From a virus (Duplodnaviria > Heunggongvirae > Uroviricota > Caudoviricetes): DNA of 43,172 nt. The notes beneath the pieces were generated by a model. That model saw nothing but the letters and a program-made list of their open reading frames with translations. It searched no databases and was not told the origin of the DNA. The stretch lies in IMG/VR virus record IMGVR_UViG_2675903609_000006. The stretch is one strand, 5' to 3'. Every line of letters starts with the position of its first letter. Position 1 is the first letter of the stretch. Below are positions 25,922 through 43,172 of this stretch, piece by piece. The position numbers and the translations under genes are program-made.

Positions 25922-25952
25922 GAAACGACAAAACCCGCTCGACGGCGGGTTT
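25922..25952 (-). terminator. tR'-like terminator upstream of the lysis cassette
   Basis: Hairpin AAACCCGC-TCGACG-GCGGGTTT followed on the minus strand by a T-rich tract. Confidence 0.45.
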
Positions 25953-26139: not shown

Positions 26140-27225
26140 ATGAAAGAAAGCCGCAGCAAGGTCATTCAATATAAACGTGCAGTCATCCCTAATTGCACAG
26201 CAACGCTTCAACAGATCATAGAATCTATAATTTCTGAAAATGGCGCAGCCTATAAAGTTAGCGCAAGAAGAGAACAGATTAACCCCTCCGATAGCAATAG
26301 TGGATTTAGAGTGGTTAACCGCAGCAGCACTTTCAAGACAGTGTTATTCGGGCAACTTATTTTGTTTGAACAAGGTAAAAGCCAAACACTTATGACAATC
26401 GCTGATGATGTCAATTATTATGACATCAATGCTATAACATCGAAGCAAATTAAATTAGCCGAAGACGAAAAAATAAGTGAAGCTGAAAAACAAAAAATAA
26501 CACGAGAATTTATTGATTCAATACTTTACTTTGGGATTCGTGATAATCATGTGATGATCGTCCAATCACCGGCTCTAAGGACTAAAGACATAGAAAGCCA
26601 TCTTAATTGGTTAATCCATTCATTTAGCACTATTTTTAATGGTGACGACTTCCTTGTACTTCAAGATAAACCAACTGAAGACACCATAAAAAAAATGCAT
26701 GAAAGTCCAGTCAAGAAAATAAATTTCGGCAGTATCCCAATCAAAAATTCTGATTCTGAAGATGTAGTTAAAATAAATAATATAAGTAACACAAACGACC
26801 TCCCCACAACAATAAAAGAACAGGTCGAAAAAGTTAAGAAAATAAAATTCATGCCAACTGGTAAAGGTGGCGATATTATAAAAGCTGCTTTTGGCGAAGC
26901 ATGGTTTAATAATTTACAACTGGAAGATTCTCTTGATGAATCCAATTTACAAGTTAATCTAGAAATAACCTATTTCCGCAAGACAAACAAAGATGGTCAA
27001 CGTGTACTCGATACTTTAGCAACTTCACTCAGAAATATAGACGATGAAGATATTAGTATAAACCTTCAAGGTGGTGGCATAATTAAAGGCAGTGATTTAA
27101 AACTATCCGGTAAAGTAAACGTCCAATATAACAATGGACTTATTGATGAAAATGATTTATATTTACAAATGCACAAATGGCTGACTTCAAAGGTTCAAAC
27201 TGGAGAAGTAAAAGTTAAAAACTAG
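26140..27225 (+). CDS. Hypothetical soluble protein (361 aa), first gene of the Q-lysis cargo module
   Basis: Long AT-rich ORF on the strand opposite to flanking phage genes; Lys/Asn/Asp/Glu-rich; no family recognised. Confidence 0.7.
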   Translation: MKESRSKVIQYKRAVIPNCTATLQQIIESIISENGAAYKVSARREQINPSDSNSGFRVVNRSSTFKTVLFGQLILFEQGKSQTLMTIADDVNYYDINAITSKQIKLAEDEKISEAEKQKITREFIDSILYFGIRDNHVMIVQSPALRTKDIESHLNWLIHSFSTIFNGDDFLVLQDKPTEDTIKKMHESPVKKINFGSIPIKNSDSEDVVKINNISNTNDLPTTIKEQVEKVKKIKFMPTGKGGDIIKAAFGEAWFNNLQLEDSLDESNLQVNLEITYFRKTNKDGQRVLDTLATSLRNIDDEDISINLQGGGIIKGSDLKLSGKVNVQYNNGLIDENDLYLQMHKWLTSKVQTGEVKVKN

Positions 27226-27563
27226 AACCAACAGGAGGCGGAAATGAGCTTCTTTAAATTTATTATAAGATTCTTATCCGCCTTCGCTTTTGGGTTTGCA
27301 ATATTTTACTTTGCATCTAGAAAAATTGACTTAAGTGGCATATCTACTCCATGGTCATTAATAACCTTATTAGCATTCCCTTTCAGTTATTGTATCGCAG
27401 CCTTTTTTAAAGTTTCTGAAGCCGACGAAAACACATCACTATCAGATAATGAACTAAGAAGATTACGACCGATAATTGATGCAAAAAAAAGACATCTTGG
27501 ATTTCTTATCTTTTTTTATCTTATTGCTGCTTTTTCAGGAGCAATTGGGGTAATGACTCCAAC

Positions 27564-28067
27564 TTATTGATAGTGTTTTATGTTCAGATAATGCCCGATG
27601 ACTTTGTCATGCAGCTCCACCGATTTTGAGAACGACAGCGACTTCCGTCCCAGCCGTGCCAGGTGCTGCCTCAGATTTAGGTTATGCCGCTCAATTCGCT
27701 GCGTATATCGCTTGCTGATTACGTGCAGCTTTCCCTTCAGGCGGGATTCATACAGCGGCCAGCCATCCGTCATCCATATCACCACGTCAAAGGGTGACAG
27801 CAGGCTCATAAGACGCCCCAGCGTCGCCATAGTGCGTTCACCGAATACGTGCGCAACAACCGTCTTCCGGAGACTGTCATACGCGTAAAACAGCCAGCGC
27901 TGGCGCGATTTAGCCCCGACATAGCCCCACTGTTCGTCCATTTCCGCGCAGACGATGACGTCACTGCCCGGCTGTATGCGCGAGGTTACCGACTGCGGCC
28001 TGAGTTTTTTAAGTGACGTAAAATCGTGTTGAGGCCAACGCCCATAATGCGGGCTGTTGCCCGGCAT
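27564..28067 (-). CDS. insB: IS1 transposase InsB
   Basis: 167-aa product recognised as IS1 InsB. Confidence 0.9.
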
Positions 28068-28261
28068 CCAACGCCATTCATGGCCATATCAATGATTTTC
28101 TGGTGCGTACCGGGTTGAGAAGCGGTGTAAGTGAACTGCAGTTGCCATGTTTTACGGCAGTGAGAGCAGAGATAGCGCTGATGTCCGGCGGTGCTTTTGC
28201 CGTTACGCACCACCCCGTCAGTAGCTGAACAGGAGGGACAGCTGATAGAAACAGAAGCCAC
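27986..28261 (-). CDS. insA: IS1 InsA
   Basis: 91-aa product recognised as IS1 InsA ([32 protein letters not shown]...). Confidence 0.9.
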
Positions 28262-28516
28262 TGGAGCACCTCAAAAACACCATCATACACTAAATCAGTA
28301 AGTTGGCAGCATCACCAGCAATTGGTATGTTCGCTATTTCCAGAGAGTCGATAGTTTATCTATATTTTATATCTGCTTGTGGAGGAGGCATTGCTGCTGC
28401 AATGTATTCTTTTTTCTTTATCAGCTCAATAAACAGCGAAATACAGAGATTTAAAAGCATCTTATTACACAGAGCTGAAGCGAATAAAAAAACGAAAGAA
28501 TTTATAGACTCATTAA

Positions 28517-28548
28517 ACAAAAAGGCGGATTGAAATCCGCCTTTTTGT
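28517..28548. terminator. Bidirectional rho-independent terminator shared by Q and the cargo module
   Basis: Hairpin AAAAGGCGGAT-TGAA-ATCCGCCTTTT flanked by A-runs and T-runs, between convergent stops at 28533 and 28554. Confidence 0.6.
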
Positions 28549-28553
28549 TTTCT

Positions 28554-28931
28554 TCAATCCATTTCTAATCTAATATCCAACATTGAAAGACAACCTTCGA
28601 TAAATCCTTCAGCCATTTTAATCTCAATGCGTATAAGTTTCTCGTCCTTTTTCTTTTCTTTAGCAATTTTTCTCTTAGAAAGACCATACAAATAATGTGC
28701 TACTAGTAACGAATGCTCATAAGGTTTTTTCTTCTTCAGCCGAGCAAGGCACCCCTCAATGATTAATCCGTCGGCATCAGTACATGAGAGTCTGTTTTTA
28801 CCTGTTTGTGGTAAAAGCCCTTTAAATCCTGCTGCGATTGGAGAATAGTCAACGCCTGAATTATCACTAGCAGCCCATCCCCCCCAACGCTCAAGAACCA
28901 TCTGAATATCACGCATCAAATTTCTCCACAA
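28554..28931 (-). CDS. Late-gene antiterminator Q (QuuD-like)
   Basis: 125 aa resembling recalled E. coli DLP12 QuuD (MRDIQMVLERWG.WAA...IAAGFKGL...ARLKK...ALDIRLEMD). Confidence 0.75.
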   Translation of the reverse strand: MWRNLMRDIQMVLERWGGWAASDNSGVDYSPIAAGFKGLLPQTGKNRLSCTDADGLIIEGCLARLKKKKPYEHSLLVAHYLYGLSKRKIAKEKKKDEKLIRIEIKMAEGFIEGCLSMLDIRLEMD

Positions 28932-28933
28932 AA

Positions 28934-29929
28934 TCAGGCCAGCACGCCAGTTGCCAGCGCACGATCGATAAAACGAAATATCAGCTCCAGCTGAGAGCCA
29001 TACTTCTCTTCAAATGCCACGGTATCCGCATGCAGCTCGTCGTGATGCTTTCTGCACAAAGGCAACACAAAGAGGTCATGCGCTTTTGTACCCATTCCCC
29101 CCTGACCGTGGCCTATCAGGTGGTGGGGATCATCAGCAGGTTTTCCACAACATGCGCACGGCTGCGTCTTAACCCAACGCGTGTACTTTTCGTTAACCCA
29201 GCGGCGACGTTTTGGGCGTAACATAAAAGAGTCCGGCGACTCCGGATCCACTTTCAGCGCCAGCACCTTTTTTGCCTTATCCTGGATGATGCTGGTGGCA
29301 GGAACCGAAGGCACAAGGTCACTTTCCCGGGTGACAGACGGCACAACAGGCTTTGGTAATCTCAGTGCCTTACGGGCTGCACTTTCCGGTAAGGCATCCG
29401 CCAGGTCATTACGAACCAGCCACCAGCACAGTTCCGGCATTGTCACAACGTGACTATCATCAAAACCGAGATCCCGACGCACAACAGACAACACCCAGCG
29501 GGCACAGTTATCCGTTGCCATTGATTCCAGCCGTTCCGTGAACTGATCGCGCAGCTGGTTATCGCAGTGCCAGCACAGACGGATTGCGCCCGGAGCGTGT
29601 CGCATTGTGGTCATGTTCTCGCTGTGCCAGTCGGAATGAGGCCACTGGCAGCCTTTTTCACGAAGTAACCAGCTTTCAAGACATTCCACGCCACCAGCAC
29701 GACGGATCACTGCCTCATTGCGGAACACGGCCCGAACGGCAGGATCATCCGCCAGCGGTTGTGATGCCGCCGGAACGGCACCGCTGGCGAAAGATGAATA
29801 ACGTTCCGGCTCAGGCTCCAGCAGGACACGCCCCTGCATAAACAGGGGCATCAGCTCTGAACCAGGTCTGAACAATACGATCACCATACGCGGGGCAATT
29901 TCAGGGGTCAGTAGTGCTCTCACAGTCAC
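28934..29929 (-). CDS. DUF968-family phage protein
   Basis: 331 aa with C-terminal Cys/His-rich motif (CACCGKPADDPHHL...LPLCRKHHDELH). Confidence 0.55.
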   Translation of the reverse strand: MTVRALLTPEIAPRMVIVLFRPGSELMPLFMQGRVLLEPEPERYSSFASGAVPAASQPLADDPAVRAVFRNEAVIRRAGGVECLESWLLREKGCQWPHSDWHSENMTTMRHAPGAIRLCWHCDNQLRDQFTERLESMATDNCARWVLSVVRRDLGFDDSHVVTMPELCWWLVRNDLADALPESAARKALRLPKPVVPSVTRESDLVPSVPATSIIQDKAKKVLALKVDPESPDSFMLRPKRRRWVNEKYTRWVKTQPCACCGKPADDPHHLIGHGQGGMGTKAHDLFVLPLCRKHHDELHADTVAFEEKYGSQLELIFRFIDRALATGVLA

Positions 29930-29930
29930 C

Positions 29931-30758
29931 TCAATGAACGGTATCGAGCAGCTTTAACAGCTCAGGGAATCGGGATTCGAAGAAATGCGGCTGCGTCTCG
30001 CGCGGATTTGCGGGACTGGTGATGTTCTTGCCGAACATGCAGCCTTTCGCTGTCAGCGACCAGAATTTTTTGATGTTGTTAATCGAGGTACGGCTGTATC
30101 GTTCGCGCTGCTCGACGATCCCCAGCTTCACCATCTGGTGATATGCCTGATTAGCCGTCAGGCGGATACCATACTGCTTCAGCAGTGCACTCAGCGACAG
30201 CGTAGGGCGGCTTGAACCATCTGGCGCATCAGCAGGTGCATCAATGGCATAGATCGGCATAAGTTCAGGAAGACCAGCTACCTTTGATAATTTCTGGTAT
30301 GCACCAAGTTTCGAGGAGTTTGACAGATTTAGAGTCTTTGCTGCTGATTCAAGCAGAATGACCCCGGATTTAATTTTGTCGGATGTGGTTTCTTCTGGTG
30401 ATGAATTATGAAGCGCATCAAAAGTACGTATCACTTTTAAGCTGAATGCCGGGCTGATCCACATTGCATATGCATAGACCAGCTCTTTACAGACATACGT
30501 CCCACCATTGCGCCCCTGAATGGTGATGACAGGAATACTACGGGAATCTCCCGTAGTTTCTTCTTCCAATAATTCCACAAGAGCCTTCGTTTCAGGACGA
30601 CGCATAAACTCGTGAACTTCCAGCGAACGGGAGGAGCGATTCTCACCAGCGGCAAGAAGAGCAGCTTTCTGAAGGTCGTTAAGACAGTAGTTAGATTCGA
30701 AGTACTGGCGCACAGAAACGCCATCAATTACAAGCAACTGATTCATTGGTTTCTCCAC
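29931..30758 (-). CDS. KilA-N domain protein
   Basis: N-terminal KilA-N signature (GGTYVCKELVYAYAMWISPAF). Confidence 0.65.
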   Translation of the reverse strand: MEKPMNQLLVIDGVSVRQYFESNYCLNDLQKAALLAAGENRSSRSLEVHEFMRRPETKALVELLEEETTGDSRSIPVITIQGRNGGTYVCKELVYAYAMWISPAFSLKVIRTFDALHNSSPEETTSDKIKSGVILLESAAKTLNLSNSSKLGAYQKLSKVAGLPELMPIYAIDAPADAPDGSSRPTLSLSALLKQYGIRLTANQAYHQMVKLGIVEQRERYSRTSINNIKKFWSLTAKGCMFGKNITSPANPRETQPHFFESRFPELLKLLDTVH

Positions 30759-30908
30759 AAATTTTTATCCACGAGCGGGACTGCACTCCCTTTTCGTTGA
30801 TGCAGGATGAACTTACTGCGATTTTTAATAGTTATCAAGGATATACTGTTCATAAATACAGTATCTTTAACGAGGTAATACCCAAATTTAGGGTGTTGCT
30901 CAATTCCG

Positions 30909-31304
30909 TTACCGAGTTGCTAATTTGCAACTCGCTTTTTCGTACTTACTGATAGTGATCTCGACCTTCCCCTCCGGGATAACCGGTCCCCACTCCACCA
31001 GCATTCTTTTCACCTGACTGTCGTCTTCCCACACACCCGCGTGGGTCAGGGCGTCAAACAGCGCCTTGTTATAGTTGTCCAGATCGCGGATCCGGTTATC
31101 CGGAGGAAACAAAACGATCTCCACTGAAGCAGGTGCCGACGTTGGTTTCGGCAGACGACGTAACTGCTCAACTATTGCTGCGCACGCCGCGCTCTGGAAT
31201 TTTCACCCCGCCGCGCTTATCAGGCTCTTACCAGCAAACGCCCCTTTGTTGGGGTGTCGCCAGTACGTGTTCACGCTGGGCGGAAAAGGAAGGATCGGCT
31301 TCAT
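30909..31304 (-). pseudogene. rusA: RusA-like Holliday junction resolvase with in-frame TGA
   Basis: ATG at 31304 encodes MKPILPFPPSVNTYWRHPNKG..., then a TGA at 31203-31205; the same frame continues into the ORF-track ORF 30909-31124 (RDLDN...FDALT...WEDDSQV). Confidence 0.55.
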
Positions 31305-31627
31305 ACTTTCAGGCCCCTCTCATGTAACCAGTGGGCTGCACGCAGCCTGGCGTTTTCCTCACCGGCAAGCAGTGAGCGGATAATCCCGACCGCCTCGCTG
31401 TCGTCGTCCTTCACCACGGTATGAAGCGTGATCCCCCGGGCCACACCACGCTTTATCGTGATGACGCCTTTTTTCTCCAGTGCGCGAAGATGCTCCACCG
31501 CTGCATTCACCGAACGGTATCCCAGCATGGTTGCCACCTCCTGATTGGTTGGCGGGAAGCCACGTTCTTTCTGATAAGAAATCAGCATATCCAGCACCTG
31601 CTGCTGGCATTGAGTTAACGTCGTCAT
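31301..31627 (-). CDS. LexA-type winged-helix DNA-binding protein without a peptidase domain
   Basis: GFPPTNQEVATMLGYRSVNAAVEHLRALEKKGVITIKRGVARGI resembles the LexA N-terminal domain; start taken at the internal Met overlapping the upstream stop. Confidence 0.5.
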   Translation of the reverse strand: MTTLTQCQQQVLDMLISYQKERGFPPTNQEVATMLGYRSVNAAVEHLRALEKKGVITIKRGVARGITLHTVVKDDDSEAVGIIRSLLAGEENARLRAAHWLHERGLKV

Positions 31628-32121
31628 TACGCCCCCACGTAATTCCCTGACAGATACCACTCATCACTCGATACAGCGCGCTTGCTGCTTTTCCGTAAAC
31701 ACTGCTCACGACGCGCCAGAAAATTGTTTCGTTCTGGCTGGGAGTGGCTTTCACGGAATGCCGCCATCCACACCGTTGCAGCACGACGGTATAAGCCCCT
31801 GGACTCCAGTTCTTCAGCCTGGCGGGTCAGGCACAAAATCTCCCGCGGGTCGTTAGTGCCGACATAGAAATTGCGCACAGGTCTGGTTTCACGAACTGGT
31901 TGCGGTTCCGCCTCCTGCGCTCTCTCAGTCAGGCGCGGGAAATGTCTGCGTGTATCCCCTTCACAACGGTGAGCCACACGCCCACTCTGACGTAACTTGC
32001 TTGCTGACTGCAGAACGCGCTGCCGTGAGTAACCTGCAAAAGCATCCGCAATGTCTCCGGAAGTACACCCCGGATGGGCTTCAATGTATTTCTGAACTTC
32101 ATTCAAAAGACTCATGATCAC
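31627..32121 (-). CDS. PerC-like regulator (putative)
   Basis: C-terminal motif LESRGLYRRAATVWMAAF resembles the recalled PerC-family signature. Confidence 0.4.
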   Translation of the reverse strand: MIMSLLNEVQKYIEAHPGCTSGDIADAFAGYSRQRVLQSASKLRQSGRVAHRCEGDTRRHFPRLTERAQEAEPQPVRETRPVRNFYVGTNDPREILCLTRQAEELESRGLYRRAATVWMAAFRESHSQPERNNFLARREQCLRKSSKRAVSSDEWYLSGNYVGA

Positions 32122-33059
32122 CCCCTGAATCCTGCCGGGATCTGGCTGTAGTCCACGTTGTCGTAACTGGCTTTGAAGTACGGGTCTTCGCGTTTTTCTG
32201 TGTACGTGCTGACGGACGGCGATAAGCGCAGGGAAAGCTCATCCCATTTTTCCCGCAGCTTCGACGGGCTGAGCACGTTACGGCACCAGAACGGATCGCG
32301 GCTGACGCGGCTGTACATCTCGCAGATTTGTTTGTGAGTACGACCATCCTGCACACACATCAGGCGAATTTCGTTTGCCCAGGCTGTCCAGTTCGGTTCT
32401 TTGGGACGAACCACCTCGCCGTCACATTCGGCGGCCTGCTCGTACAGGGCGATGATTTTTTTCCAGAGCCACTGTGCGCAGGTCAAATCATCCTGCGTTC
32501 CCCACTGGCGCTTTTTAGGGCTGAATACAACCGCATCAGGATGGCGAGTTAAAAACTCCTGTTCAGCCGTCTGCGTGTCCGGTTGCGAAGCGTCCGGACG
32601 AGAAGTTTTTTTATCTGACGGATCATGTTTTGATTTTACTGACGGATCCCCGCCAGATTCTGACGGGTGAAAACCCGCTTTTTTGCCAGATTTCGACGCA
32701 TCAAATTTTGACGGGTCAGATTTTGATGCGTCAGATTTTGACGGGTCAGAATCTGACAGTTGAGAAAATGCCGCTGCCTGAAGCTTCGCAACGTTAAGCT
32801 GATAAACATTCGACGCATTGCGGTTACCCTGGCGACGCGCCTTACGCGTTAACCAGCCTTCTGCTTCCAGCCGTGCGATAGCCGTTCTGACGGTACTCAT
32901 CCCCGCGCCAATCTGACGGGCAATGGTTTCAATTGATGGCCAGCACACACCTTCGTCATTACTGAAATCAGCCAGGCGGGCCATAATTGCCACGCTGGAT
33001 AATTTCATGCCTGACGCTGCGCAACCATCCCATACATAGCCGGTTAATTTAGTGCTCAT
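32118..33059 (-). CDS. Replication initiator (O-like) with internal origin iterons
   Basis: N-terminal HTH, a central repetitive linker (SDSDPSKSDASKSDPSKFDASKSG) encoded by the iteron array, and a C-terminal domain. Confidence 0.6.
   Translation of the reverse strand: MSTKLTGYVWDGCAASGMKLSSVAIMARLADFSNDEGVCWPSIETIARQIGAGMSTVRTAIARLEAEGWLTRKARRQGNRNASNVYQLNVAKLQAAAFSQLSDSDPSKSDASKSDPSKFDASKSGKKAGFHPSESGGDPSVKSKHDPSDKKTSRPDASQPDTQTAEQEFLTRHPDAVVFSPKKRQWGTQDDLTCAQWLWKKIIALYEQAAECDGEVVRPKEPNWTAWANEIRLMCVQDGRTHKQICEMYSRVSRDPFWCRNVLSPSKLREKWDELSLRLSPSVSTYTEKREDPYFKASYDNVDYSQIPAGFRG
32611..32762. repeat. Iteron array (about eight ~15-bp direct repeats, consensus AGATTTTGACGGGTC) - candidate replication origin
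   Basis: Four contiguous 15-bp units at 32703-32762 plus degenerate copies upstream, all inside the initiator gene. Confidence 0.6.
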
Positions 33060-33407
33060 GACCGACCTCTATTTCCCTGAATTTACGACGAAACTGTTCG
33101 AGCGGGCTGAAGCACTCATGCTCATAGCCTTCACGGAGGTAGATAACCCGTTGTGTTTCCGGCTCCCAACGAATGACTCTGACGGGCACTCCGTAGTGAT
33201 CTTTGAACCAGCGATTAACTTGTCGCAAAGGACTGTCTCCTTCTGCCGGTTGAAATCCCCCACAGCCCACTCTGCAAAGCTGTGGGTTACAATTTCCCTG
33301 TCACCTGGTACATTCACTGCATAGCAATACTCCACCTTCGCTTTTCCACCCGGTACAGGAAGCGCAATCAGTTGCGAGCGACGGTAGTGTGTTGTTAAAC
33401 TGTTCAT
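33049..33407 (-). CDS. Hypothetical protein, reading frame ambiguous
   Basis: Two overlapping ORFs (33069-33407 and 33049-33270) in different frames each look plausible; the longer fits the gene array positionally. Confidence 0.3.
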
Positions 33408-33967
33408 GCGTTAGTTTCTCCACAGTCACGACACGCCACGGCGCCCGGAGCTGCACACTCGCGGGCGTCATTACTTTCTGAAATGCAAAAAATTTTGTAG
33501 ACCAGTGCTGCATGCTCCTGCAGCTTCGAAATTGAGAGGTACAGCTCGTCGTTAATTGCTGTCTTCTCATGCGGTTCCACTACACCGTCTTCGATTGCTG
33601 AACGAATCTGTTTTGAATAACTGCCGATCTGTTCAATGACTTCCAGCAGACGCTGGTTAATATCGGCGTTGTCCACATCCTCGACGTCAGGAAGAGACAC
33701 AAAGACGCCATTTGCAGACTGCGCCACAGCGTCAGCAATGAAGTGAGTTCCACCAGCACGTTGCAAAATCATTGCCCATCCCAGCGGGAAAATCTGATCG
33801 CCATCGGCACGAAGGCGGTTAAATAATGCGTTCTCTGTTACATCCAGCCAGTCAGCTGCTTCAGCGTAACCACCCGGCAACTTTGCGATAGTTTTTCTGA
33901 CAGCTTTCACGTACCACTCAGGCTGTTTTTCTACTTTCCAGTGATGCTTACCCACGGTTAGCCTCAT
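33404..33967 (-). CDS. CII-like regulatory protein (putative)
   Basis: 187 aa immediately downstream of cro; tentative family resemblance only. Confidence 0.4.
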
Positions 33968-33998
33968 CGTTCTGTGGTTAAAAATTGAAAGTGTTCTG

Positions 33999-34199
33999 CT
34001 AATCTTTCGGATAGATATCCGGTCTTAAGTCAGATTTCGTAATTGCACCTGACGTGCATTGCTCAAGTTTTTTAGCCAGCACAAAACTGGCTTTTTTATA
34101 GCCATTGAAAACCAGCCGTAAGTAGCCAGGTGTTGAGCCAACTTTTCCGGCCAACTCGCCCTGCTGTTCTTTGGTTAAAGAGTCCCAATACGCTTTCAT
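33999..34199 (-). CDS. cro: Cro-like repressor (Cro/YdaS-type HTH)
   Basis: Divergent from the repressor gene; start taken at MKAYWDS because the ORF-track start overlaps an operator. Confidence 0.7.
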   Translation of the reverse strand: MKAYWDSLTKEQQGELAGKVGSTPGYLRLVFNGYKKASFVLAKKLEQCTSGAITKSDLRPDIYPKD

Positions 34200-34204
34200 A
34201 CAAT

Positions 34205-34274
34205 ATGTACCTCCGGTGTACATATTACATGATTAAAATGAACCTTCAAGATACTTGTACCTTAACGGTACAAG
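34205..34274. promoter_or_regulatory. Divergent immunity promoter region with two palindromic operators
   Basis: ATGTAC-CTCCGGT-GTACAT (34205-34223) and CTTGTACC-TTAA-CGGTACAAG (34254-34274) between cro and the repressor gene. Confidence 0.55.
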
Positions 34275-34289
34275 GGTTTTAATTTCGTT

Positions 34290-34964
34290 ATGAAAACAAT
34301 CCATGACATCCGGCGGTCTAACGCCAGAAAACTGAGAGATGGTGTTGGCGGGAATTCTTCCTTTGCCACTATGATTGATCGCGAGCCAACCCAGACCAGC
34401 AGGTTTATGGGAGATGGTGCTACTAAAAATATCGGTGACAGCATGGCACGACACATCGAAAAATGTTTCGACCTGCCTGTTGGATGGCTCGATCAAGAAC
34501 ACCAGACAACGAACATCACAAAAAAACCTGATGTTTCAATCACTAATAAACAAATCACATTAGTCCCTGTCATATCATGGGTACAGGCCGGAGCATGGAA
34601 AGAAGTTGGATATTCTGAGGTTGATTTGAGCACAGCAGAAACGTATCCCTGCCCTGTACCCTGTGGGGAAATGACTTATATCTTGCGGGTGATAGGTGAT
34701 TCAATGATTGATGAGTACCGCCCGGGAGACATGATTTTTGTCGATCCTGAAGTACCAGCCTGCCACGGTGACGACGTTATTGCATTGATGCACGATACAG
34801 GTGAAACCACCTTCAAAAGGTTGATAGAAGATGGGACACAGCGTTATCTCAAAGCGTTAAACCCAAACTGGCCTGAGCCTTACATTAAGATCAACGGTAA
34901 TTGCTCTATAATTGGAACTGTGATTTTCTCAGGAAAACCAAGAAGATACAAAATCAAAGCCTAA
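34290..34964 (+). CDS. cI: CI-type repressor with S24 (LexA-like) autopeptidase domain
   Basis: C-terminal domain with VIGDSM nucleophile and downstream Lys (FKRL), similar to recalled P22 C2. Confidence 0.85.
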   Translation: MKTIHDIRRSNARKLRDGVGGNSSFATMIDREPTQTSRFMGDGATKNIGDSMARHIEKCFDLPVGWLDQEHQTTNITKKPDVSITNKQITLVPVISWVQAGAWKEVGYSEVDLSTAETYPCPVPCGEMTYILRVIGDSMIDEYRPGDMIFVDPEVPACHGDDVIALMHDTGETTFKRLIEDGTQRYLKALNPNWPEPYIKINGNCSIIGTVIFSGKPRRYKIKA

Positions 34965-34975
34965 TCAATGTTTAT

Positions 34976-35000
34976 GAACCTGCTTCGGCAGGTTTTTTTA
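34976..35000 (+). terminator. Rho-independent terminator after the repressor gene
   Basis: AACCTGC-TTCG-GCAGGTT hairpin followed by TTTTTTT. Confidence 0.65.
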
Positions 35001-35003
35001 TAC

Positions 35004-35031
35004 TTGACAATGTACCCATGAGATACATAAT
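35004..35031 (+). promoter_or_regulatory. Near-consensus sigma70 promoter (pL-like candidate)
   Basis: TTGACA (35004-35009), 16-nt spacer, CATAAT (35026-35031); two ATGTACCC direct repeats overlap the spacer and the start region. Confidence 0.5.
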
Positions 35032-35120
35032 GTACCCAAGAGAAACAACGAACAGGCAGGACGCCCACGAAGTAGCCGCCTGGGGCATATAAAGTCTAGG
35101 GTGATTCGTTAGCAACAAAA

Positions 35121-35153
35121 AAGCGCCCTACAGGACGCTTAGCTCTTTAACAA
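35121..35153 (+). promoter_or_regulatory. Hairpin plus boxA-like motif (candidate antitermination element)
   Basis: AAGCGCC-CTACA-GGACGCTT hairpin, then GCTCTTTAACAA (35142-35153), which matches the recalled rrn boxA. Confidence 0.4.
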
Positions 35154-35198
35154 TCTGGTCCCCATCAACAAGTAACTGATAACTTGAGGAGGTGTGAA

Positions 35199-35405
35199 AT
35201 GCACAAAACAGAACCCAAAATCGTCGCGCCCGGATACACAAATGAGGAAATTTACGAGTGGATGGCAAAGAAGCTGGCAGCTATAAACCAGCTTCGTGAA
35301 GTGCTGTCTTATCGACAGGAAACAATAGACTCCTTAAAAAAACTGGATCAGGAAATCACGGTTTTATCACAGGATGTTACTTTAGATATTGTGCAGACAA
35401 ATTAG
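35199..35405 (+). CDS. Hypothetical protein (68 aa)
   Basis: ATG preceded by GAGGAGG; helical, coiled-coil-like product; not Arg-rich. Confidence 0.4.
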   Translation: MHKTEPKIVAPGYTNEEIYEWMAKKLAAINQLREVLSYRQETIDSLKKLDQEITVLSQDVTLDIVQTN

Positions 35406-35811
35406 GATCCCATTCATTTTCGTCAAAATCATCAAAGTGATGAATTTGTGATCTCCAGTCTCGATAATCTAAAAATTTCTGGGCGGTTACGCTTATTTTA
35501 TCAAGTGTGAGTTCATCCTGAATTGAAAGAAGAAGTTCATCAAATTTCATCTCATTAATCTGTTTTGGCATCCAGTGATGCTTCATCAGAATAAGGTGAA
35601 CCAGAGCCTTTTTCCCATTCAACTGATTATAGGGAGTGCCGAATTTCTTCCGGTGCTCATGTAAGACAAGGTCCAGAAGAGTAAGTAATGTTGCCCTTGA
35701 TTCCACTTTGCTTATTTCGACTGATGACACTACCCCACTGATTTCAATGCCCCGATACTTTCCAACATTTTCACAGTGGGATTTGTACAGCGTGTAGATA
35801 TTACCGGACAT
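35377..35811 (-). CDS. Hypothetical protein (144 aa), AT-rich cargo gene
   Basis: Convergent with and overlapping the 68-aa ORF by 29 nt; markedly lower GC than flanks; no family recognised. Confidence 0.5.
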   Translation of the reverse strand: MSGNIYTLYKSHCENVGKYRGIEISGVVSSVEISKVESRATLLTLLDLVLHEHRKKFGTPYNQLNGKKALVHLILMKHHWMPKQINEMKFDELLLSIQDELTLDKISVTAQKFLDYRDWRSQIHHFDDFDENEWDPNLSAQYLK

Positions 35812-36140
35812 TTCTTTTCCTTTTGCGTTGTTGGGGATAACCAGATTAACCGAATCCTTGTTGTTGGGGAATAACCAGGTCCACCTCGCCTGATGTGGCT
35901 AAAAGCAGGCACATAACAGCTAAGTATTTTTAACCAGAGAGAATCCTTAGCGTTGTGGTGAATGCGGCTCAGCGCACGCGGGTTAAGGTTGAGGCTGACA
36001 GTCGACCTTCTGTGGATACCCACCCGTCTGGTGTGCAACCTTCGCCAGGCACCGGGAGGCACCCGGCACCACAACTTTATGCTGTGTGTAGTCCTGGAGG
36101 TACCAGTTTGTACCCTTGCTTCCGGCTGGTACCGTCCTTT

Positions 36141-36240
36141 TTACAAAACAGAGAAGAGCATCACCGGACGACGGGCTCATAACCCAATCCATCCGGGCGG
36201 CTGCCACCGCAGGTGTTCTTCTCTGTTTTGTGGAGAAACT
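36141..36240 (+). other. Long inverted repeat (~17-bp arms, ~60-nt spacer) in a non-coding gap
   Basis: ACAAAACAGAGAAGAGCA (36143-36160) pairs with TGTTCTTCTCTGTTTTGT (36223-36240), one mismatch. Confidence 0.5.
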
Positions 36241-36279
36241 AATCGGCCTTGCAGGGTCGATATGATGAGGAGCAGCAAA

Positions 36280-36642
36280 ATGGCTAGCGAACGCAGTACT
36301 GATGTGCAGGCATTTATCGGGGAGCTGGACGGCGGCGTATTTGAAACCAAAATCGGCGCAGTTCTCAGTGAAGTCGCTTCCGGTGTGATGAACACGAAAA
36401 CCAAAGGTAAGGTCTCACTCAACCTGGAAATCGAACCATTTGATGAGAACCGTGTGAAAATCAAACACAAACTCTCATATGTTCGCCCGACTAACCGCGG
36501 GAAAATTTCCGAAGAAGACACCACCGAAACGCCGATGTATGTCAATCGCGGTGGTCGCCTGACTATTCTGCAGGAAGACCAGGGACAGTTACTGACTCTT
36601 GCCGGTGAACCTGACGGAAAACTCCGCGCAGCAGGTCGTTAA
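36280..36642 (+). CDS. Hypothetical early protein (YfdP-like)
   Basis: Start taken at MASERSTD with upstream GAGGAG; the ORF-track ORF extends further upstream through non-coding-looking sequence. Confidence 0.5.
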   Translation: MASERSTDVQAFIGELDGGVFETKIGAVLSEVASGVMNTKTKGKVSLNLEIEPFDENRVKIKHKLSYVRPTNRGKISEEDTTETPMYVNRGGRLTILQEDQGQLLTLAGEPDGKLRAAGR

Positions 36643-36707
36643 TATCGTTTTTAATTAACTGATTATTTATCTCATCACTGAATATCTTTATATAGTGAGG
36701 ACTTATT

Positions 36708-37532
36708 ATGTCTCAGAACTTAGACGCAACCGCAATTAATCAAATCCATGCCCTTATTTCTGCTCAGGGTGTTAATGAAATTATCAGTAAGATTGGTGCC
36801 GATGCTGTGGCATTGCCTGAGAATTTCCGCATTCATGATCTGGAAAAATTTAATTTAAATCGCTTCCGTTTCCGTGGTGCGCTTTCCACTGCCAGCATCG
36901 ATGACTTTACCCGTTATTCTAAAGATCTTGCAGATGAAGGCACCCGCTGCTTTATCGATGCTGATAATATGCGTGCCGTCAGTGTGCTTAACCTGGGTAC
37001 TATTGATGAACCAGGTCACGCAGATAACACCGCCACACTCAAACTGAAAAAGACAGCACCGTTCTCTGCTCTGTTGTCTGTTAACGGCGAGCGTAACTCC
37101 CAGAAGTCACTGGCAGAATGGATTGAAGACTGGGCCGACTATCTTGTGGGCTTTGATGCTAATGGTGACGCTATTCAGGCAACAAAAGCGGCTGCGGCTG
37201 TCCGTAAAATCACGATTGAAGCAAACCAGACCGCTGATTTTGAAGATAATGACTTCAGCGGCAAACGCTCCCTGATGGAGTCTGTCGAAGCGAAGACCAA
37301 AGACATTATGCCAGTGGCATTTGAATTTAAATGCGTTCCGTTTGAAGGTCTGAAAGAACGTCCGTTTAAATTACGCCTCAGTATTATCACTGGCGATCGT
37401 CCTGTACTGGTTCTGCGCATTATTCAGCTGGAGGCGGTGCAGGAAGAAATGGCTAACGAATTTCGTGATCTGCTTGTTGAGAAATTCAAGGACAGCAAAG
37501 TAGAAACCTTTATTGGTACTTTCACCGCCTGA
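36708..37532 (+). CDS. DUF2303-family protein (YfdQ-like)
   Basis: 274 aa; resembles recalled CPS-53 YfdQ. Confidence 0.65.
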
Positions 37533-37659
37533 TTTCATTACTGCAAATGCCCCTGCGGGGGCATTTATGGAAACGTAATTTACTCAATAATCGCCGGATG
37601 GTGAGGGATTCTTTTTACCAGAATTCAGCGCGGTGCAGCGCATATACGTGGAGAACAAA

Positions 37660-38196
37660 ATGTCATTTATTAAAACTTTTTCCGGGAAGCATTTTTATTA
37701 TGACAGGATAAATAAAGACGACATCGATATTAACGATATCGCGGTTTCCCTTTCAAATATCTGTCGCTTTGCCGGTCATCTTTCGCACTTCTACAGCGTC
37801 GCCCAACATGCGGTTCTTTGCAGCCAGTTGGTGCCGCAGGAATTTGCTTTTGAAGCGTTAATGCATGATGCAACAGAAGCGTATTGCCAGGACATTCCCG
37901 CACCACTGAAACGCCTTCTTCCTGACTATAAACAAATGGAAGAAAAAATAGACGCCGTAATCCGTGAGAAATACGGGTTACCCCCAGTTATGAGTACGCC
38001 CGTGAAATATGCCGATCTCATCATGCTGGCAACCGAACGCCGCGATCTCGGGCTTGATGATGGCTCTTTCTGGCCTGTACTGGAAGGTATCCCGGCAACA
38101 GAGATGTTCAACGTGATTCCACTGGCACCGGGCCATGCCTACGGGATGTTTATGGAACGCTTTAACGAGTTATCGGAGTTACGCAAATGCGCATGA
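37660..38196 (+). CDS. HD-domain phosphohydrolase (YfdR-like)
   Basis: H...HD motif (LMHDATEAY); start taken at MSFIKTF with an upstream GGAG. Confidence 0.6.
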   Translation: MSFIKTFSGKHFYYDRINKDDIDINDIAVSLSNICRFAGHLSHFYSVAQHAVLCSQLVPQEFAFEALMHDATEAYCQDIPAPLKRLLPDYKQMEEKIDAVIREKYGLPPVMSTPVKYADLIMLATERRDLGLDDGSFWPVLEGIPATEMFNVIPLAPGHAYGMFMERFNELSELRKCA

Positions 38197-38549
38197 ATGT
38201 TTTCGAAATGGAAGGGTTTCTTCGTGGGAGATGTGTACCGCGAGATCTGAAAGTAAATGAAACAGATGCTGAATACCTGGTGCGTAAATTCGATGCGCTT
38301 GAAGCTAAATGTGCAGCACAGGAAAACAAAGTAATACCAGTGTCAACTGAACTGCCACCAGCAAATGAAAGTGTTTTGTTATTCGATGCTAACGGAGAAG
38401 GCTGGCTAATTGGCTGGCGTTCTCTCTGGTACACCTGGGGACAAAAAGAAACCGGAGAATGGCAGTGGACATTTCAGGTCGGGGACCTTGAAAACGTCAA
38501 TATCACTCACTGGGCAGTAATGCCAAAAGCACCGGAGGCTGGAGCATAA
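38187..38549 (+). CDS. DUF551-like protein (YfdS-like)
   Basis: 120 aa, Trp-rich C-terminal domain; position in the early operon. Confidence 0.45.
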   Translation: MRMNVFEMEGFLRGRCVPRDLKVNETDAEYLVRKFDALEAKCAAQENKVIPVSTELPPANESVLLFDANGEGWLIGWRSLWYTWGQKETGEWQWTFQVGDLENVNITHWAVMPKAPEAGA

Positions 38550-38854
38550 TGACCACTTTTACCGACAAAGAACTGATTAAAGAAATTAAAGAGCGTATCA
38601 GCAGCCTTGACGTGCGAGACGATATTGAGCGCCGTGCTTATGAAATCGCACTCCTATCTCTGGAAGTAGAACCAGATGAACGCGAAGCTTATGAATTATT
38701 CATGGAAAAGCGTTTCGGTGACTTAGTAGATCGTCGGAGAGCAAAAAACGGCGATAACGAATACATGGCATGGGATATGACTCTCGGTTGGATCGTCTGG
38801 CAGCAACGAGCTGGTATCCATTTTTCAACAATGTCACAGCAAGAGGTGAAATAA
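38549..38854 (+). CDS. Hypothetical early protein (YfdT-like)
   Basis: 101-aa ORF with ATGA-type coupling to the upstream gene. Confidence 0.45.
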   Translation: MTTFTDKELIKEIKERISSLDVRDDIERRAYEIALLSLEVEPDEREAYELFMEKRFGDLVDRRRAKNGDNEYMAWDMTLGWIVWQQRAGIHFSTMSQQEVK

Positions 38855-39204
38855 TGGAGCCATACAGCCTCACACTCGATGAGGCCTGTCATTTTCTCAA
38901 GATATCCAGACCGACTGCCATTAACTGGATACGCACAGGGCGTCTTCAGGCAACACGCAAAGATCCCACTAAGAATAAATCTCCTTACCTCACAACACGA
39001 CAAGCCTGCATTGCGGCTCTTCAGTCTCCGCTGCATACTGTCCAGGTGAGCGCGGGTGATGGCATAACAGAGGAAAGAAAATGTCACTCTTCCGCAGAGG
39101 TGAAATATGGTACGCCAGTTTCACATTGCCGAACGGTAAAAGATTTAAACAGTCTCTTGGAACAAAGGACAAAAGGCAGGCGACAGAACTCCATGACAAG
39201 CTAA
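38854..39204 (+). CDS. Excisionase-like HTH protein (3' end uncertain)
   Basis: ATG at 38854 preceded by AAGAGG; N-terminal HTH-like segment; frame overlaps the int start by ~120 nt. Confidence 0.4.
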
Positions 39205-40244
39205 AGGCTGAAGCATGGCGGGTCAGCAAACTTGGTGAAATACCTGATATAACGTTCGAGGAAGCGTGTGTCAGGTGGCTTGAAGAGAAAGCACATAAAA
39301 AATCACTGGACGATGACAAAAGCCGGATCGGATTCTGGCTTCAACATTTCGCAGGAATACAACTAAGAGACATTACTGAATCAAAAATTTATTCAGCAAT
39401 GCAGAAAATGACGAACCGGCGTCATGAGGAAAACTGGAAACTCAGGGCAGAATCATGCAGAAAAAAAGGGAAACCTGTTCCAGAATACACGCCAAAACCA
39501 GCGTCCGTTGCAACGAAGGCTACGCATCTTTCATTTATAAAGGCCCTACTAAGAGCCGCAGAGCGTGAATGGAAAATGCTGGATAAGGCACCAATTATTA
39601 AAGTGCCTCAACCAAAGAATAAACGGATCCGCTGGCTGGAGCCCCATGAAGCACAAAGGCTGATTGATGAATGTCCGGAGCCATTAAAGTCTGTTGTTGA
39701 ATTTGCACTGGCAACAGGCTTAAGACGCTCGAACATCATCAACCTTGAATGGCAACAAATAGATATGCAGCGCCGGGTGGCATGGATAAACCCGGAAGAG
39801 AGTAAATCAAACCGCGCAATTGGCGTTGCGCTGAATGATACTGCATGTCGCGTATTGAAAAAACAAATCGGGAATCATCACCGTTGGGTATTTGTGTACA
39901 AGGAAAGCTGTACCAAACCAGACGGAACGAAAGCGCCAACAGTAAGGAAGATGCGGTATGACGCAAACACAGCCTGGAAAGCGGCGCTGAGACGGGCTGG
40001 TATTGATGATTTCAGATTTCACGACTTGAGACACACCTGGGCAAGTTGGCTGGTTCAAGCCGGAGTCCCGTTGTCAGTTTTACAGGAAATGGGAGGCTGG
40101 GAGTCTATCGAAATGGTTCGTCGATATGCTCACCTTGCACCTAATCACCTTACCGAACACGCACGGCAAATAGACTCGATCCTGAACCCATCGGTCCCAA
40201 ATTTGTCCCAGTCAAAAAATAAGGAAGGTACTAATGATGTGTAA
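39081..40244 (+). CDS. int: Tyrosine integrase (site-specific recombinase)
   Basis: 387 aa with catalytic motifs ([24 protein letters not shown]...RYAH); ends 15 nt before the tRNA. Confidence 0.9.
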
Positions 40245-40258
40245 CTTATTGATTTTAA

Positions 40259-40304
40259 TGGTGCCGATAATAGGAGTCGAACCTACGACCTTCGCATTAC
40301 GAAT
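40259..40304. repeat. Proximal attachment-site core (3' 46 nt of the tRNA)
   Basis: Identical to 433-478. Confidence 0.8.
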
Positions 40305-40334
40305 GCGCTGCTCTACCAACTGAGCTATATCGGC
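40259..40334 (-). tRNA. thrW: tRNA-Thr (anticodon CGT) - integration target
   Basis: Reverse complement reads GCCGATATAGCTCAGTTGGTAGAGCAGCGCATTCGTAATGCGAAGGTCGTAGGTTCGACTCCTATTATCGGCACCA (76 nt, CCA end at 40259). Confidence 0.9.
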
Positions 40335-40448
40335 CCTGAAAGGACATGTTCACGAACGTGAATCACGGTGGACAAGGTTAAAACTAACCGGGCGATGCGT
40401 CAATGGCCTTGTGAATCAAATGGCTACTTTTGCATCACCCGGTTTTAT

Positions 40449-41765
40449 TTACGCACGAATGGTGTAATCACCAATGCCGATCCACTTGTAAGTGGTCAGT
40501 GCTTCCAGCCCCATTGGGCCACGCGCGTGGAGTTTTTGTGTGCTTACCGCCACTTCCGCACCCAGACCAAACTGGCCGCCGTCGGTAAAACGCGTAGAGG
40601 CGTTAACGTAAACAGCGGACGAATCCACTTCGTTAACAAAACGCTGGGCGTTGCGCATATCGCGGGTCAGGATCGCATCGGAGTGTTGTGTGCCGTGTTC
40701 ACGAATATGGGCGATGGCATCGTCAAGATCGCTGACGATTTTGACGTTCAAATCTAATGACAGAAACTCATCGTCATACTCTTCGGCTTTAACCGCCACC
40801 ACCTTCGCAGGGCCTGCCTGCAACTGTGTCAGCGCAGCTGCATCTGCGTGTAATGTCACGCCGCTTTCCGCCATTTGTTTGCTTAATGCGGGCAGGAAGC
40901 TATCGGCGATGTTTTTATTCACCAGCAACGTTTCAACCGTATTACATGTGCTCGGACGCTGAGTTTTCGCGTTGACGATCACTTTTAATGCTTCAGCGAT
41001 CTCTGCACTTTCATCAACGTAAATATGGCATACGCCTATACCACCTGTGATCACCGGGATTGTCGACTGTTCACGGCACAGTTTATGCAAACCAGCGCCA
41101 CCACGCGGGATCAGCATGTCGATGTATTTATCCATACGCAGCATTTCACTGACCAGCGCACGGTCAGGATTATCAATCGCCTGCACGGCACCCGCCGGTA
41201 AGCCACAGGATTTCAGGGCGTCCTGAATCACCGCCACCGTTGCCGCGTTAGTGCGACAGGTTTCTTTACCACCACGCAGGATCACCGCATTACCGGTTTT
41301 CAGGCACAGCGAAGCGACATCAACCGTCACGTTCGGGCGCGCTTCATAAATCACGCCAATAACCCCCAGCGGTACGCGACGACGCTCAAGACGCAGGCCG
41401 CTGTCCAGTACGCCGCCATCGANNNNNNNNNNNNNNNNNNNNNNNNNNNNNNNNNNNNNNNNNNNNNNNNNNNNNNNNNNNNNNNNNNNNNNNNNNNNNN
41501 NNNNNNNNNNNNNNNNNNNNNNNNNNNNNNNNNNNNNNNNNNNNNNNNNNNNNNNNNNNNNNNNNNNNNNNNNNNNNNNNNNNNNNNNNNNNNNNNNNNN
41601 NNNNNNNNNNNNNNNNNNNNNNNNNNNNNNNNNNNNNNNNNNNNNNNNNNNNNNNNNNNNNNNNNNNNNNNNNNNNNNNNNNNNNNNNNNNNNNNNNNNN
41701 NNNNNNNAGAGTTGCGCTAATTTATACGAGGCTTGCTTCGCGGCAATGCCCATTTGTTCCAGCAT
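40449..41765 (-). CDS. proA: Gamma-glutamyl phosphate reductase (interrupted by an N-run)
   Basis: N-terminus [19 protein letters not shown] and C-terminal conserved region; N-run 41423-41707 inside. Confidence 0.9.
41423..41707. other. Run of N (285 nt) - gap or masked sequence
   Basis: Literal n characters. Confidence 1.
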
Positions 41766-41776
41766 CGGCCAGCTCC

Positions 41777-42943
41777 TTAACGGGTAATCATGTCATCACG
41801 GTGAACGGCAACCGGGCCGTATTCATATCCCAGTATTGCATCAATTTCTTGCGAGTGGTGTCCGGCAATACGGCGTAATGCATCGCTGTTGTAACGACTG
41901 ACACCGTGGGCGATATCGCGACCTTCGAGGTTGCAAATGCGGATGACTTCACCACGCGAGAAATTGCCAGTAACGCTTTTAATGCCTTTCGGCAACAGGG
42001 AGCTGCCGCGTTCCAGAATGGCGGCCGTNNNNNNNNNNNNNNNNNNNNNNNNNNNNNNNNNNNNNNNNNNNNNNNNNNNNNNNNNNNNNNNNNNNNNNNN
42101 NNNNNNNNNNNNNNNNNNNNNNNNNNNNNNNNNNNNNNNNNNNNNNNNNNNNNNNNNNNNNNNNNNNNCCTGGGCATGGAACAGCGTACCGACGGAAATG
42201 CCTTCCATCACATCACCAATAACGCCCGGCTTGCTGCCCGCGGCAATAATGGTGTCGATACCCGCACGGCAAGCCACGTCAGCGGCCTGCAATTTAGTAC
42301 TCATGCCGCCAGTTCCGAGGCCTGAAACGCTGTCACCGGCAATCGCGCGCAGTGCGTCATCAATGCCGTAAACATCTTTAATCAGTTCTGCCTGCGGATT
42401 TCTGCGCGGATCAGCGGTATACAAACCTTTTTGATCGGTCAGCAGCAACAGTTTATCGGCACCCGCCAGAATCGCCGCCAGCGCAGAAAGGTTATCGTTA
42501 TCGCCGACCTTAATCTCTGCCGTAGCGACAGCATCGTTCTCATTGATTACCGGAACGATATTGTTATCGAGCAACGCACGCAGGGTGTCGCGGGCGTTCA
42601 GGAAGCGTTCACGGTCTTCCATATCAGCACGGGTCAGCAGCATTTGCCCGACGTGAATGCCATAAATCGAAAACAGCTGTTCCCACAGTTGAATCAGTCG
42701 ACTCTGCCCTACCGCCGCCAGCAGTTGTTTCGAGGCGATAGTCGCTGGCAGTTCCGGGTAACCCAGGTGCTCACGTCCGGCGGCGATCGCGCCCGACGTC
42801 ACAATAACAATCCGATGCCCGGCGGCATGTAACTGCGCGCACTGGCGAACAAGTTCAACGATATGGGCACGGTTCAGACGGCGCGATCCGCCTGTTAGCA
42901 CACTGGTGCCGAGTTTTACCACCAGCGTCTGGCTGTCACTCAT
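41777..42943 (-). CDS. proB: Glutamate 5-kinase (interrupted by an N-run)
   Basis: Start at [19 protein letters not shown] (ATG at 42943), PUA-domain C-terminus ending DDMITR; N-run 42029-42168 inside. Confidence 0.9.
42029..42168. other. Run of N (140 nt) - gap or masked sequence
   Basis: Literal n characters. Confidence 1.
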
Positions 42944-43118
42944 GATTCTCTGCCATTCAATTTTAGGAAAAATGATATCAAACGAACGTTTTAGCAGGAC
43001 TGTCGTCGGTTGCCAACCATCTGCGAGCAAAGCATGGCGTTTTGTTGCGCGGGATCAGCAAGCGTAGCGGCAGTTGTTTACGCTTTTATTACAGATTTAA
43101 TAAATTACCACATTTTCA

Positions 43119-43172
43119 GGTAATGACTCCAACTTACTGATAGTGTTTTATGTTCAGATAATGCCCGATGAC
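43119..43172 (-). mobile_element. IS1 terminal 54 bp (second copy, continues beyond the window)
   Basis: GGTAATGACTCCAACTTACTGATAGTGTTTTATGTTCAGATAATGCCCGATGAC, the same end and orientation as the IS1 at 27549. Confidence 0.9.

Follow-up and report, generated by a model that had tools for sequence, protein, structure and literature searches.

We analysed two copies of the insertion sequence IS1 that lie in direct orientation in a 43,172-nt stretch of DNA (the window). The window is the entire draft contig AZPE01000222.1 (assembly GCA_000565985.1) and covers the thrW-proBA region of a Shigella flexneri strain that carries the serotype-converting phage SfIV as a prophage. The two copies very probably were inserted independently of each other, one borne by SfIV and one by the chromosome, and this divergent pair, brought together by lysogeny, makes a poor substrate for deletion. 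An initial annotation had described two IS1 copies in direct orientation bracketing the phage early region, the integrase gene int, the tRNA gene thrW and proBA, and both this layout and the list of genes proved correct. The window contains no other repeat family of this kind. The arrangement itself is ordinary and essentially already known: a published IS1-bearing prophage stands beside a lineage-wide chromosomal IS1.

The assignment to SfIV rests on several features. Window positions 415-40304 match the SfIV genome KC814930 (39,758 bp) with 99.9% identity over the whole phage genome, in prophage order and including its IS1 and ISEhe3. Moreover, the prophage is integrated at thrW with a duplicated att site, and gtrA-gtrB-gtrIV adjoin attR. 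Coordinates of all features are given in Table 1.

The phage-borne and the chromosomal IS1

The left copy begins with its right inverted repeat (IRR) end (GGTAATGACTCCAACTTATTGAT) and finishes with the complement of the left inverted repeat (IRL) end. Its terminal inverted repeats are imperfect and about 23 bp long (GGTGATGCTGCCAACTTACTGAT / GGTAATGACTCCAACTTATTGAT), and insA and insB' are open on the minus strand. IS1 transposase is produced by a -1 frameshift between insA and the overlapping insB'; the 232-amino-acid product called in the element matched the Pfam families Zn_ribbon_InsA, HTH_Tnp_IS1 and DDE_Tnp_IS1. The element had rightly been called complete, and its end, placed at 28315, has to be moved by one base to 28316. 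Its sequence agrees at 100% identity with E. coli copies annotated as IS1A, and shows no mismatch to the IS1 of KC814930 or to that of the closed S. flexneri chromosome CP026792.1, where it is flanked by the same 9-bp duplication.

The two copies of this target-site duplication (AGCAATTGG) match each other perfectly and lie within the 8-9 bp of an IS1 insertion. An 108-amino-acid open reading frame (ORF) of the contig runs into the left IS1. The exact empty site was found in 8 related prophages in assemblies of E. coli and Shigella; all 8 carry an uninterrupted 170-amino-acid ORF, the same that is restored when the left IS1 is excised. Because of the 9-bp duplication and the 8 empty sites with an intact ORF, the left copy is best read as a simple insertion into a pre-existing 170-amino-acid accessory ('moron') gene between Q and the lysis genes. 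The SfIV paper put forward a joint arrival of orf48, orf49 and IS1 (PMC3851460). The target duplication and the 8 IS1-free relatives contradict this idea, since IS1 landed in a gene that was already present and disrupted it. SfIV has been induced from a wild-type strain and converts the serotype of its host (PMC3851460); as the published, inducible phage contains the left IS1, the element travels inside virions. The left junction was present in 0 of 5,426 complete E. coli genomes.

The surroundings of the left copy showed some further features. The moron (26140-28533), located between Q and the lysis genes, has a low G+C content (34% vs 50%) and comprises a 361-amino-acid ORF and the 170-amino-acid ORF. 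Searches with Pfam and PADLOC gave no match for the two proteins, and PHROGs returned families of unknown function only. A strong terminator-like hairpin lies at 25931-25952 (minus strand) immediately upstream of the holin gene and may represent tR' of the late operon, which would place pR' downstream of the moron. At the other border, a promoter-like hybrid at 28303-28331 (plus strand) combines TTGGCA in the IRL end of IS1 with TATGTT in the flank at a distance of 17 nt. It points out of the element into the 3' fragment of the split ORF.

The right copy is represented in the window by 54 nt, of which 53 are identical to the left IS1 in the same orientation. These 54 nt stand exactly at the end of the contig, and the other contig end is likewise an insertion sequence (IS) end (IS600-like at 1-59, IS1 at 43119-43172), as is typical of breaks induced by repeats. 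Hence it could be argued that the right 'IS1' results from faulty assembly, or is a solo or truncated IS end, and that no real second copy exists. We give this explanation very little credence. CP026792.1, which encodes exactly the integrase protein of the window, differs from it at 2 of 12,342 shared positions (overall identity 99.98-100%) and has an identical junction between proB and IS1. There the right IS1 (locus L018, 13913-14680) is a full 768-bp element with open insA/insB' in direct orientation, 175 bp from the proB ATG. It is flanked by its own 8-bp duplication CATTTTCA and followed by phoE, crl, frsA and gpt. The phoE-side flank reads CATTTTCAGAATATC and also contains CATTTTCAGAATATCATTAATCTG; the empty-site sequence for this position is ACCACATTTTCAGAATATC. 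A second closed chromosome, that of S. flexneri SFBU1023 (CP182556.1), has the same junction in an exact-pattern scan and again a complete, directly oriented IS1 with its duplication. The 54 nt of the window are 100% identical to the start of the 768-bp element in both chromosomes (locus L034 in SFBU1023), and other drafts break at the same position. For these close relatives an artefact is refuted. The initial annotation had named a truncated or inverted right copy as the finding that would overturn its reading, and in CP026792.1 the copy is neither. For annotators this means that an IS fragment at the end of a draft contig points to a break in the assembly.

The comparison with SFBU1023 also bears on the origin of the right copy. 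Its IS1 and flank are identical to those of CP026792.1 at 1004 of 1004 bases, unlike its int/xis remnant, which is only 99.5-99.6% identical to the window. Because SFBU1023 shares the IS1 and its flank but has a different, decayed prophage at thrW, the right IS1 is, as far as the sequences tell, independent of SfIV. It is a lineage-wide chromosomal IS1 of S. flexneri situated in the AT-rich phoE-proB spacer.

In the decayed prophage of SFBU1023, a 1,259-bp IS600-like element interrupts int, and another element of the IS3 family cuts the prophage short at what would be window position 38246. The strain illustrates IS-driven prophage decay at thrW.

Comparing the left IS1 with the right one of CP026792.1, we found 90.8% identity with 71 mismatches in 768 bp. 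The stub at the contig end had looked nearly identical because the first differences sit at element positions 19 and 55. With 99.7-99.9% identity, the right copy belongs with a different isoform that is widespread in E. coli and annotated only as 'IS1 family'. Judged by these differences, the two copies are different isoforms; they very probably stem from unrelated insertion events. IS copies that are alike over their first 54 nt can therefore be isoforms with 9% divergence, which alters predictions of recombination.

Two intact, directly oriented IS1 copies that bracket passenger genes also recall Tn9 and the argF element Tn2901, and the copies together with the 14.7 kb between them might be regarded as a composite transposon that moved as a unit. 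A unit of the Tn9 type would show one shared duplication and lie outside the native locus of its genes. We found separate duplications (AGCAATTGG vs CATTTTCA), different outer flanks and a separate empty site for each IS1. The copies belong to different isoforms, and the passenger genes stand in the native order int-attL-thrW-proA-proB-(phoE), as in E. coli genomes with no IS1 at this place. The separate duplications and empty sites refute a composite transposon as the origin, and we consider this explanation extremely unlikely; the two copies might still mobilise the segment as a unit in the future.

For the independent insertion of the two copies we infer the following order of events. An IS1A-type element would have transposed into the 170-amino-acid accessory gene of SfIV, and would since then have been packaged and transmitted with the phage genome. 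Separately, an isoform with about 9% divergence would have transposed into the phoE-proB spacer, with the IRR end coming to lie 175 bp from the start codon of proB. SfIV presumably inserts at thrW by Int-mediated site-specific recombination and always in one orientation, so that lysogeny in a host already equipped with the chromosomal copy would automatically set the phage IS1 in direct repeat with it, 15.4 kb away. One point weighs against this account on the side of the right copy: in the strain of the window it is seen for 54 nt, and its full length and divergence are taken from near-identical closed genomes.

Predicted deletion between the two copies

The initial annotation had predicted that homologous recombination between the two copies deletes about 15 kb. 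The geometry of this prediction and its list of lost genes stand; the event itself is expected to be inefficient. The start-to-start distance of the copies is 15,444 bp in CP026792.1 and 15,570 bp in the window, where it is inflated by 126 bp because the runs of N in proA and proB are oversized. If a deletion occurred, Q, the immunity and replication regions, xis/int, attL/thrW and proBA would be lost, and attR would remain with the late genes and the gtr genes. A RecA-dependent event would yield a proline auxotroph whose int-less prophage retains gtrIV. The genes for serotype-4 conversion would then be trapped in a prophage unable to move, for which the host would pay with proline auxotrophy, and nothing suggests that this has happened.

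Efficient recombination by RecA calls for repeats in the same orientation, near-identity over hundreds of base pairs and at least one block of strict identity. In bacteria the length required of this block is at most about 30 bp, and recombination declines exponentially as sequences diverge (PMC8918686). MutS and MutL abort homeologous exchange when mismatches are met (PMC8918686). The two IS1 copies have the same orientation, and their longest perfect runs (51, 44, 35, 35, 35 and 34 bp) exceed the minimal block. With 90.8% identity they fall short of near-identity. Since the identity is this low and the perfect blocks do not exceed 51 bp, exchange by RecA is expected to be strongly depressed. 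Deletion should thus be geometrically possible, yet inefficient and far rarer than with identical copies. Moreover, S. flexneri has many other IS1 copies, so that this pair would be no privileged substrate.

A different expectation is that the pair forms an efficient and biologically important deletion hotspot, at which the early region, int, thrW and proBA are lost time and again, gtrIV becomes fixed in a stranded prophage and Pro- strains arise. Indeed, both copies are complete and directly oriented, recombination between direct repeats gives deletions, and insertion sequences shape Shigella genomes (PMC8072062). The decay of the thrW prophage in SFBU1023 is linked to insertion sequences as well, yet to IS600 and another IS and not to this IS1 pair. 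Apart from the low identity and the short perfect blocks, the genomes themselves argue against a hotspot. Among the contexts returned for the left-junction ORF or for int there was no deletion product, although short-read drafts break at IS1, which limits the power of this screen. All distinct contexts returned for the left-junction ORF either continue into Q and the early region or stop at IS1, and none of them is a contig of 50 kb to 1 Mb that bridges the left junction to phoE. CP026792.1 is the only closed, chromosome-sized record with the left junction, and its segment from IS1 to IS1 is intact. Draft contigs L020 and L021 (14,673 and 14,672 bp), which stand for about 10 further similar places, start at most 2 bp from the right end of the left IS1 and stop 1-8 bp short of the right IS1. 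Because these contigs run from IS1 to IS1, their isolates retain the inter-IS1 segment of 14.67 kb. All sequenced relatives examined, in two closed-genome views and several drafts, have this segment. The deletion junction that the initial annotation had suggested screening for in related strains was accordingly not found in these genomes. The complete E. coli genomes could not have revealed it, as none of them has the left junction. Taken together, we regard a deletion hotspot as improbable.

Two further points weigh against a poor deletion substrate. Firstly, blocks of 51, 44 and 35 bp are longer than the minimal identity segment, and recombination could be appreciable in a mutS- or mutL-defective background. 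Secondly, as short-read drafts break at IS1, isolates with the deletion could hide among the assemblies with the left junction (276 index blocks). We nevertheless infer a low efficiency for the independently inserted, divergent pair.

The proB upstream region

The initial annotation had noted that the right IS1 lies about 175 bp from the proB start and may affect its promoter. The distance is exact, with 175 bp between the ATG at 42943 and the IS1 end at 43119; an effect on proB expression is possible, and only part of the promoter region is concerned. A genome-wide map of start sites in E. coli K-12 contains two weakly supported proB starts, at -151 (2 reads) and at -10 (4 reads) (supplement of PMC3415461). 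The distal start maps to window position 43094, and IS1 begins 25 nt upstream of it at 43119, with 24 bp (43095-43118) in between. Consequently, the element replaces the -35 region of the distal start. The extended -10 element with its upstream TG (TGGTAATTT) and everything proximal to it are kept, including the proximal start, and proA and proB are intact in the closed relative CP026792.1. A consensus scan of the 175-bp proB leader for promoters and terminators let nothing pass; the scan requires a T at position 6 of the -10 element, which the candidates lack.

It could be supposed that the right IS1, by displacing the -35 region, rewires proBA expression, either through a hybrid or an extended -10-only promoter or by uncoupling proBA from the PhoB-regulated phoE side. 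The orientation of IS1 in the spacer fits this idea: all five independent insertions examined, one in S. flexneri and four in E. coli at 173-327 bp from the ATG, share it. This could be a sign of selection instead of target preference, yet the agreement is no more than suggestive, its chance probability being about 1 in 16. The four E. coli insertions belong to different isoforms with different duplications, and the one in CUWW10 lies 2 bp from the Shigella site (Table 1). The number of insertions is close to that expected by chance from IS1 density, and we consider rewiring unlikely.

An insertion hotspot upstream of proB was considered and rejected: 11 of 5,426 E. coli genomes carry IS1 in or near the spacer or phoE, which is about the general density of IS1. 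By a rough estimate from random IS1 density, a spacer of about 560 bp would be expected to have received 6-7 insertions among the 5,426 genomes, and the four E. coli insertions in the spacer do not exceed this.

The prophage and its relation to known systems

The remaining features of the window are summarised in Table 1. Between the two IS1 copies, the early region contains a Q antiterminator gene, a DUF968/HNH gene, a KilA-N gene, a replication gene with iterons, a cII-like gene, cro, cI, hypothetical genes and xis. Five tandem iteron-like units of 15 bp (CAGATTTTGACGGGT and variants) lie within the replication-protein gene at 32687-32761, inside the IS1-bracketed segment, and presumably represent the phage origin.

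Table 1. Features of the window and IS1 insertions in the phoE-proB spacer of E. coli (window positions unless a locus is named)
Feature	Position	Strand or orientation	Basis or remark
attR, partial 3' copy of thrW	415-478	minus	64-nt att repeat, paired with attL
Target-site duplication, left copy, 9 bp (AGCAATTGG)	27540-27548		perfect match to the other copy
Complete IS1 (IS1A-type), 768 bp	27549-28316	minus	terminal inverted repeats and intact insA/insB'
Target-site duplication, right copy, 9 bp (AGCAATTGG)	28317-28325		perfect match to the other copy
SfIV early region between the IS1 copies	28554-39204		KC814930 annotation mapped onto the window, Pfam families
cI	34290-34964		
SfIV integrase gene int, tyrosine recombinase, 387 aa	39081-40244	plus	exact protein also encoded in CP026792.1
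attL core (40241-40304) overlapping tRNA-Thr(CGT) gene thrW (40259-40334)	40241-40334	minus	ARAGORN; 64-nt att repeat
proA, run of N at 41423-41707	40449-41765	minus	intact 417-aa gene in CP026792.1
proB, ATG at 42943, run of N at 42029-42168	41777-42943	minus	intact 367-aa gene in CP026792.1
Remaining proB upstream region, 175 bp	42944-43118	minus	window sequence
First 54 nt (IRR end) of chromosomal IS1 in the phoE-proB spacer	43119-43172	minus	cut off by contig end
Spacer IS1 of E. coli CUWW10	L001 20468-21235	IRR toward proB	173 bp from proB ATG, 2 bp from Shigella site
Spacer IS1 of E. coli	L035 1739-2506	IRR toward proB	324 bp from proB ATG
Spacer IS1 of E. coli	L036 1742-2509	IRR toward proB	327 bp from proB ATG
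Spacer IS1 of E. coli	L037 1608-2375	IRR toward proB	193 bp from proB ATG

Besides the two runs of N in proA and proB the window contains a third one in a tail gene (10181-10339). Each run exceeds the true sequence, as known from SfIV, E. coli and CP026792.1, by 61-63 nt, the excess being 63 nt in both proA and proB. As a result, ORF lengths are inflated by the runs, and those in proA and proB break up the genes called on the stored contig. The unaligned stretches in proA, proB and the tail gene had also been considered as insertions of 21 codons; this was rejected, as the stretches are the runs of N.

Further mobile sequences lie on the attR side. An ISEhe3 element of the IS3 family with 34-nt terminal inverted repeats occupies 3876-5105 in the tail-fibre region and is also part of the published SfIV genome. 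Just beyond attR, a second tyrosine-integrase gene (44-418; Pfam Phage_integrase) is cut by the IS600-like terminus, which at positions 1-59 corresponds to the end of the 1,259-bp IS600-like element within int of SFBU1023. The second integrase gene has about 72% nucleotide identity to the 3' end of SfIV int and seems to be what is left of an older element that had integrated at thrW, resulting in a tandem arrangement.

The window is most directly comparable to Shigella phage SfIV (KC814930 / NC_022749) described by Jakhetia et al. (2013, PMC3851460). The 39.76-kb phage genome shares with it the IS1 (orf47, 'IS1 transposase B'), ISEhe3, gtrA-gtrB-gtrIV next to the att site, int/xis and integration at thrW. 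Unlike the phage genome, the window shows the integrated prophage together with its host flanks.

With regard to proB, the right copy resembles the hybrid promoters that IS1 ends reportedly created in work by Prentki et al. from 1986. Here, too, an IS1 end abuts an extended -10 element, that of the distal proB start, and replaces the native -35 region. The hybrid in the window is, however, putative, and its spacing of 19 nt between TTGGAG of IS1 and the -10 element is suboptimal.

Structures with direct IS1 copies are well known from E. coli, among them Tn9, the argF element Tn2901, which is flanked by IS1, and IS1-bounded deletions such as the argF-lac deletion U169. As in the pro-lac and Tn9 structures, two direct IS1 copies bracket chromosomal genes in the same chromosomal neighbourhood, and unequal or intramolecular exchange between them would give deletion or amplification. 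In contrast to these structures, the copies described here are 9% divergent and independently inserted, one of them lies in a prophage, and the product of the rearrangement is undocumented. A further parallel is phage P1, whose IS1 is used for IS1-mediated integration and for the formation of P1argF. We know of no IS1-mediated integration or transducing derivative of SfIV, which has a site-specific integration system of its own, unlike what is seen in the IS1-dependent events of P1. Like P1, SfIV is a temperate phage with an intact IS1 that is able to pair with a chromosomal IS1. It carries this element into every host that it lysogenises and thereby provides portable homology next to proBA and thrW.

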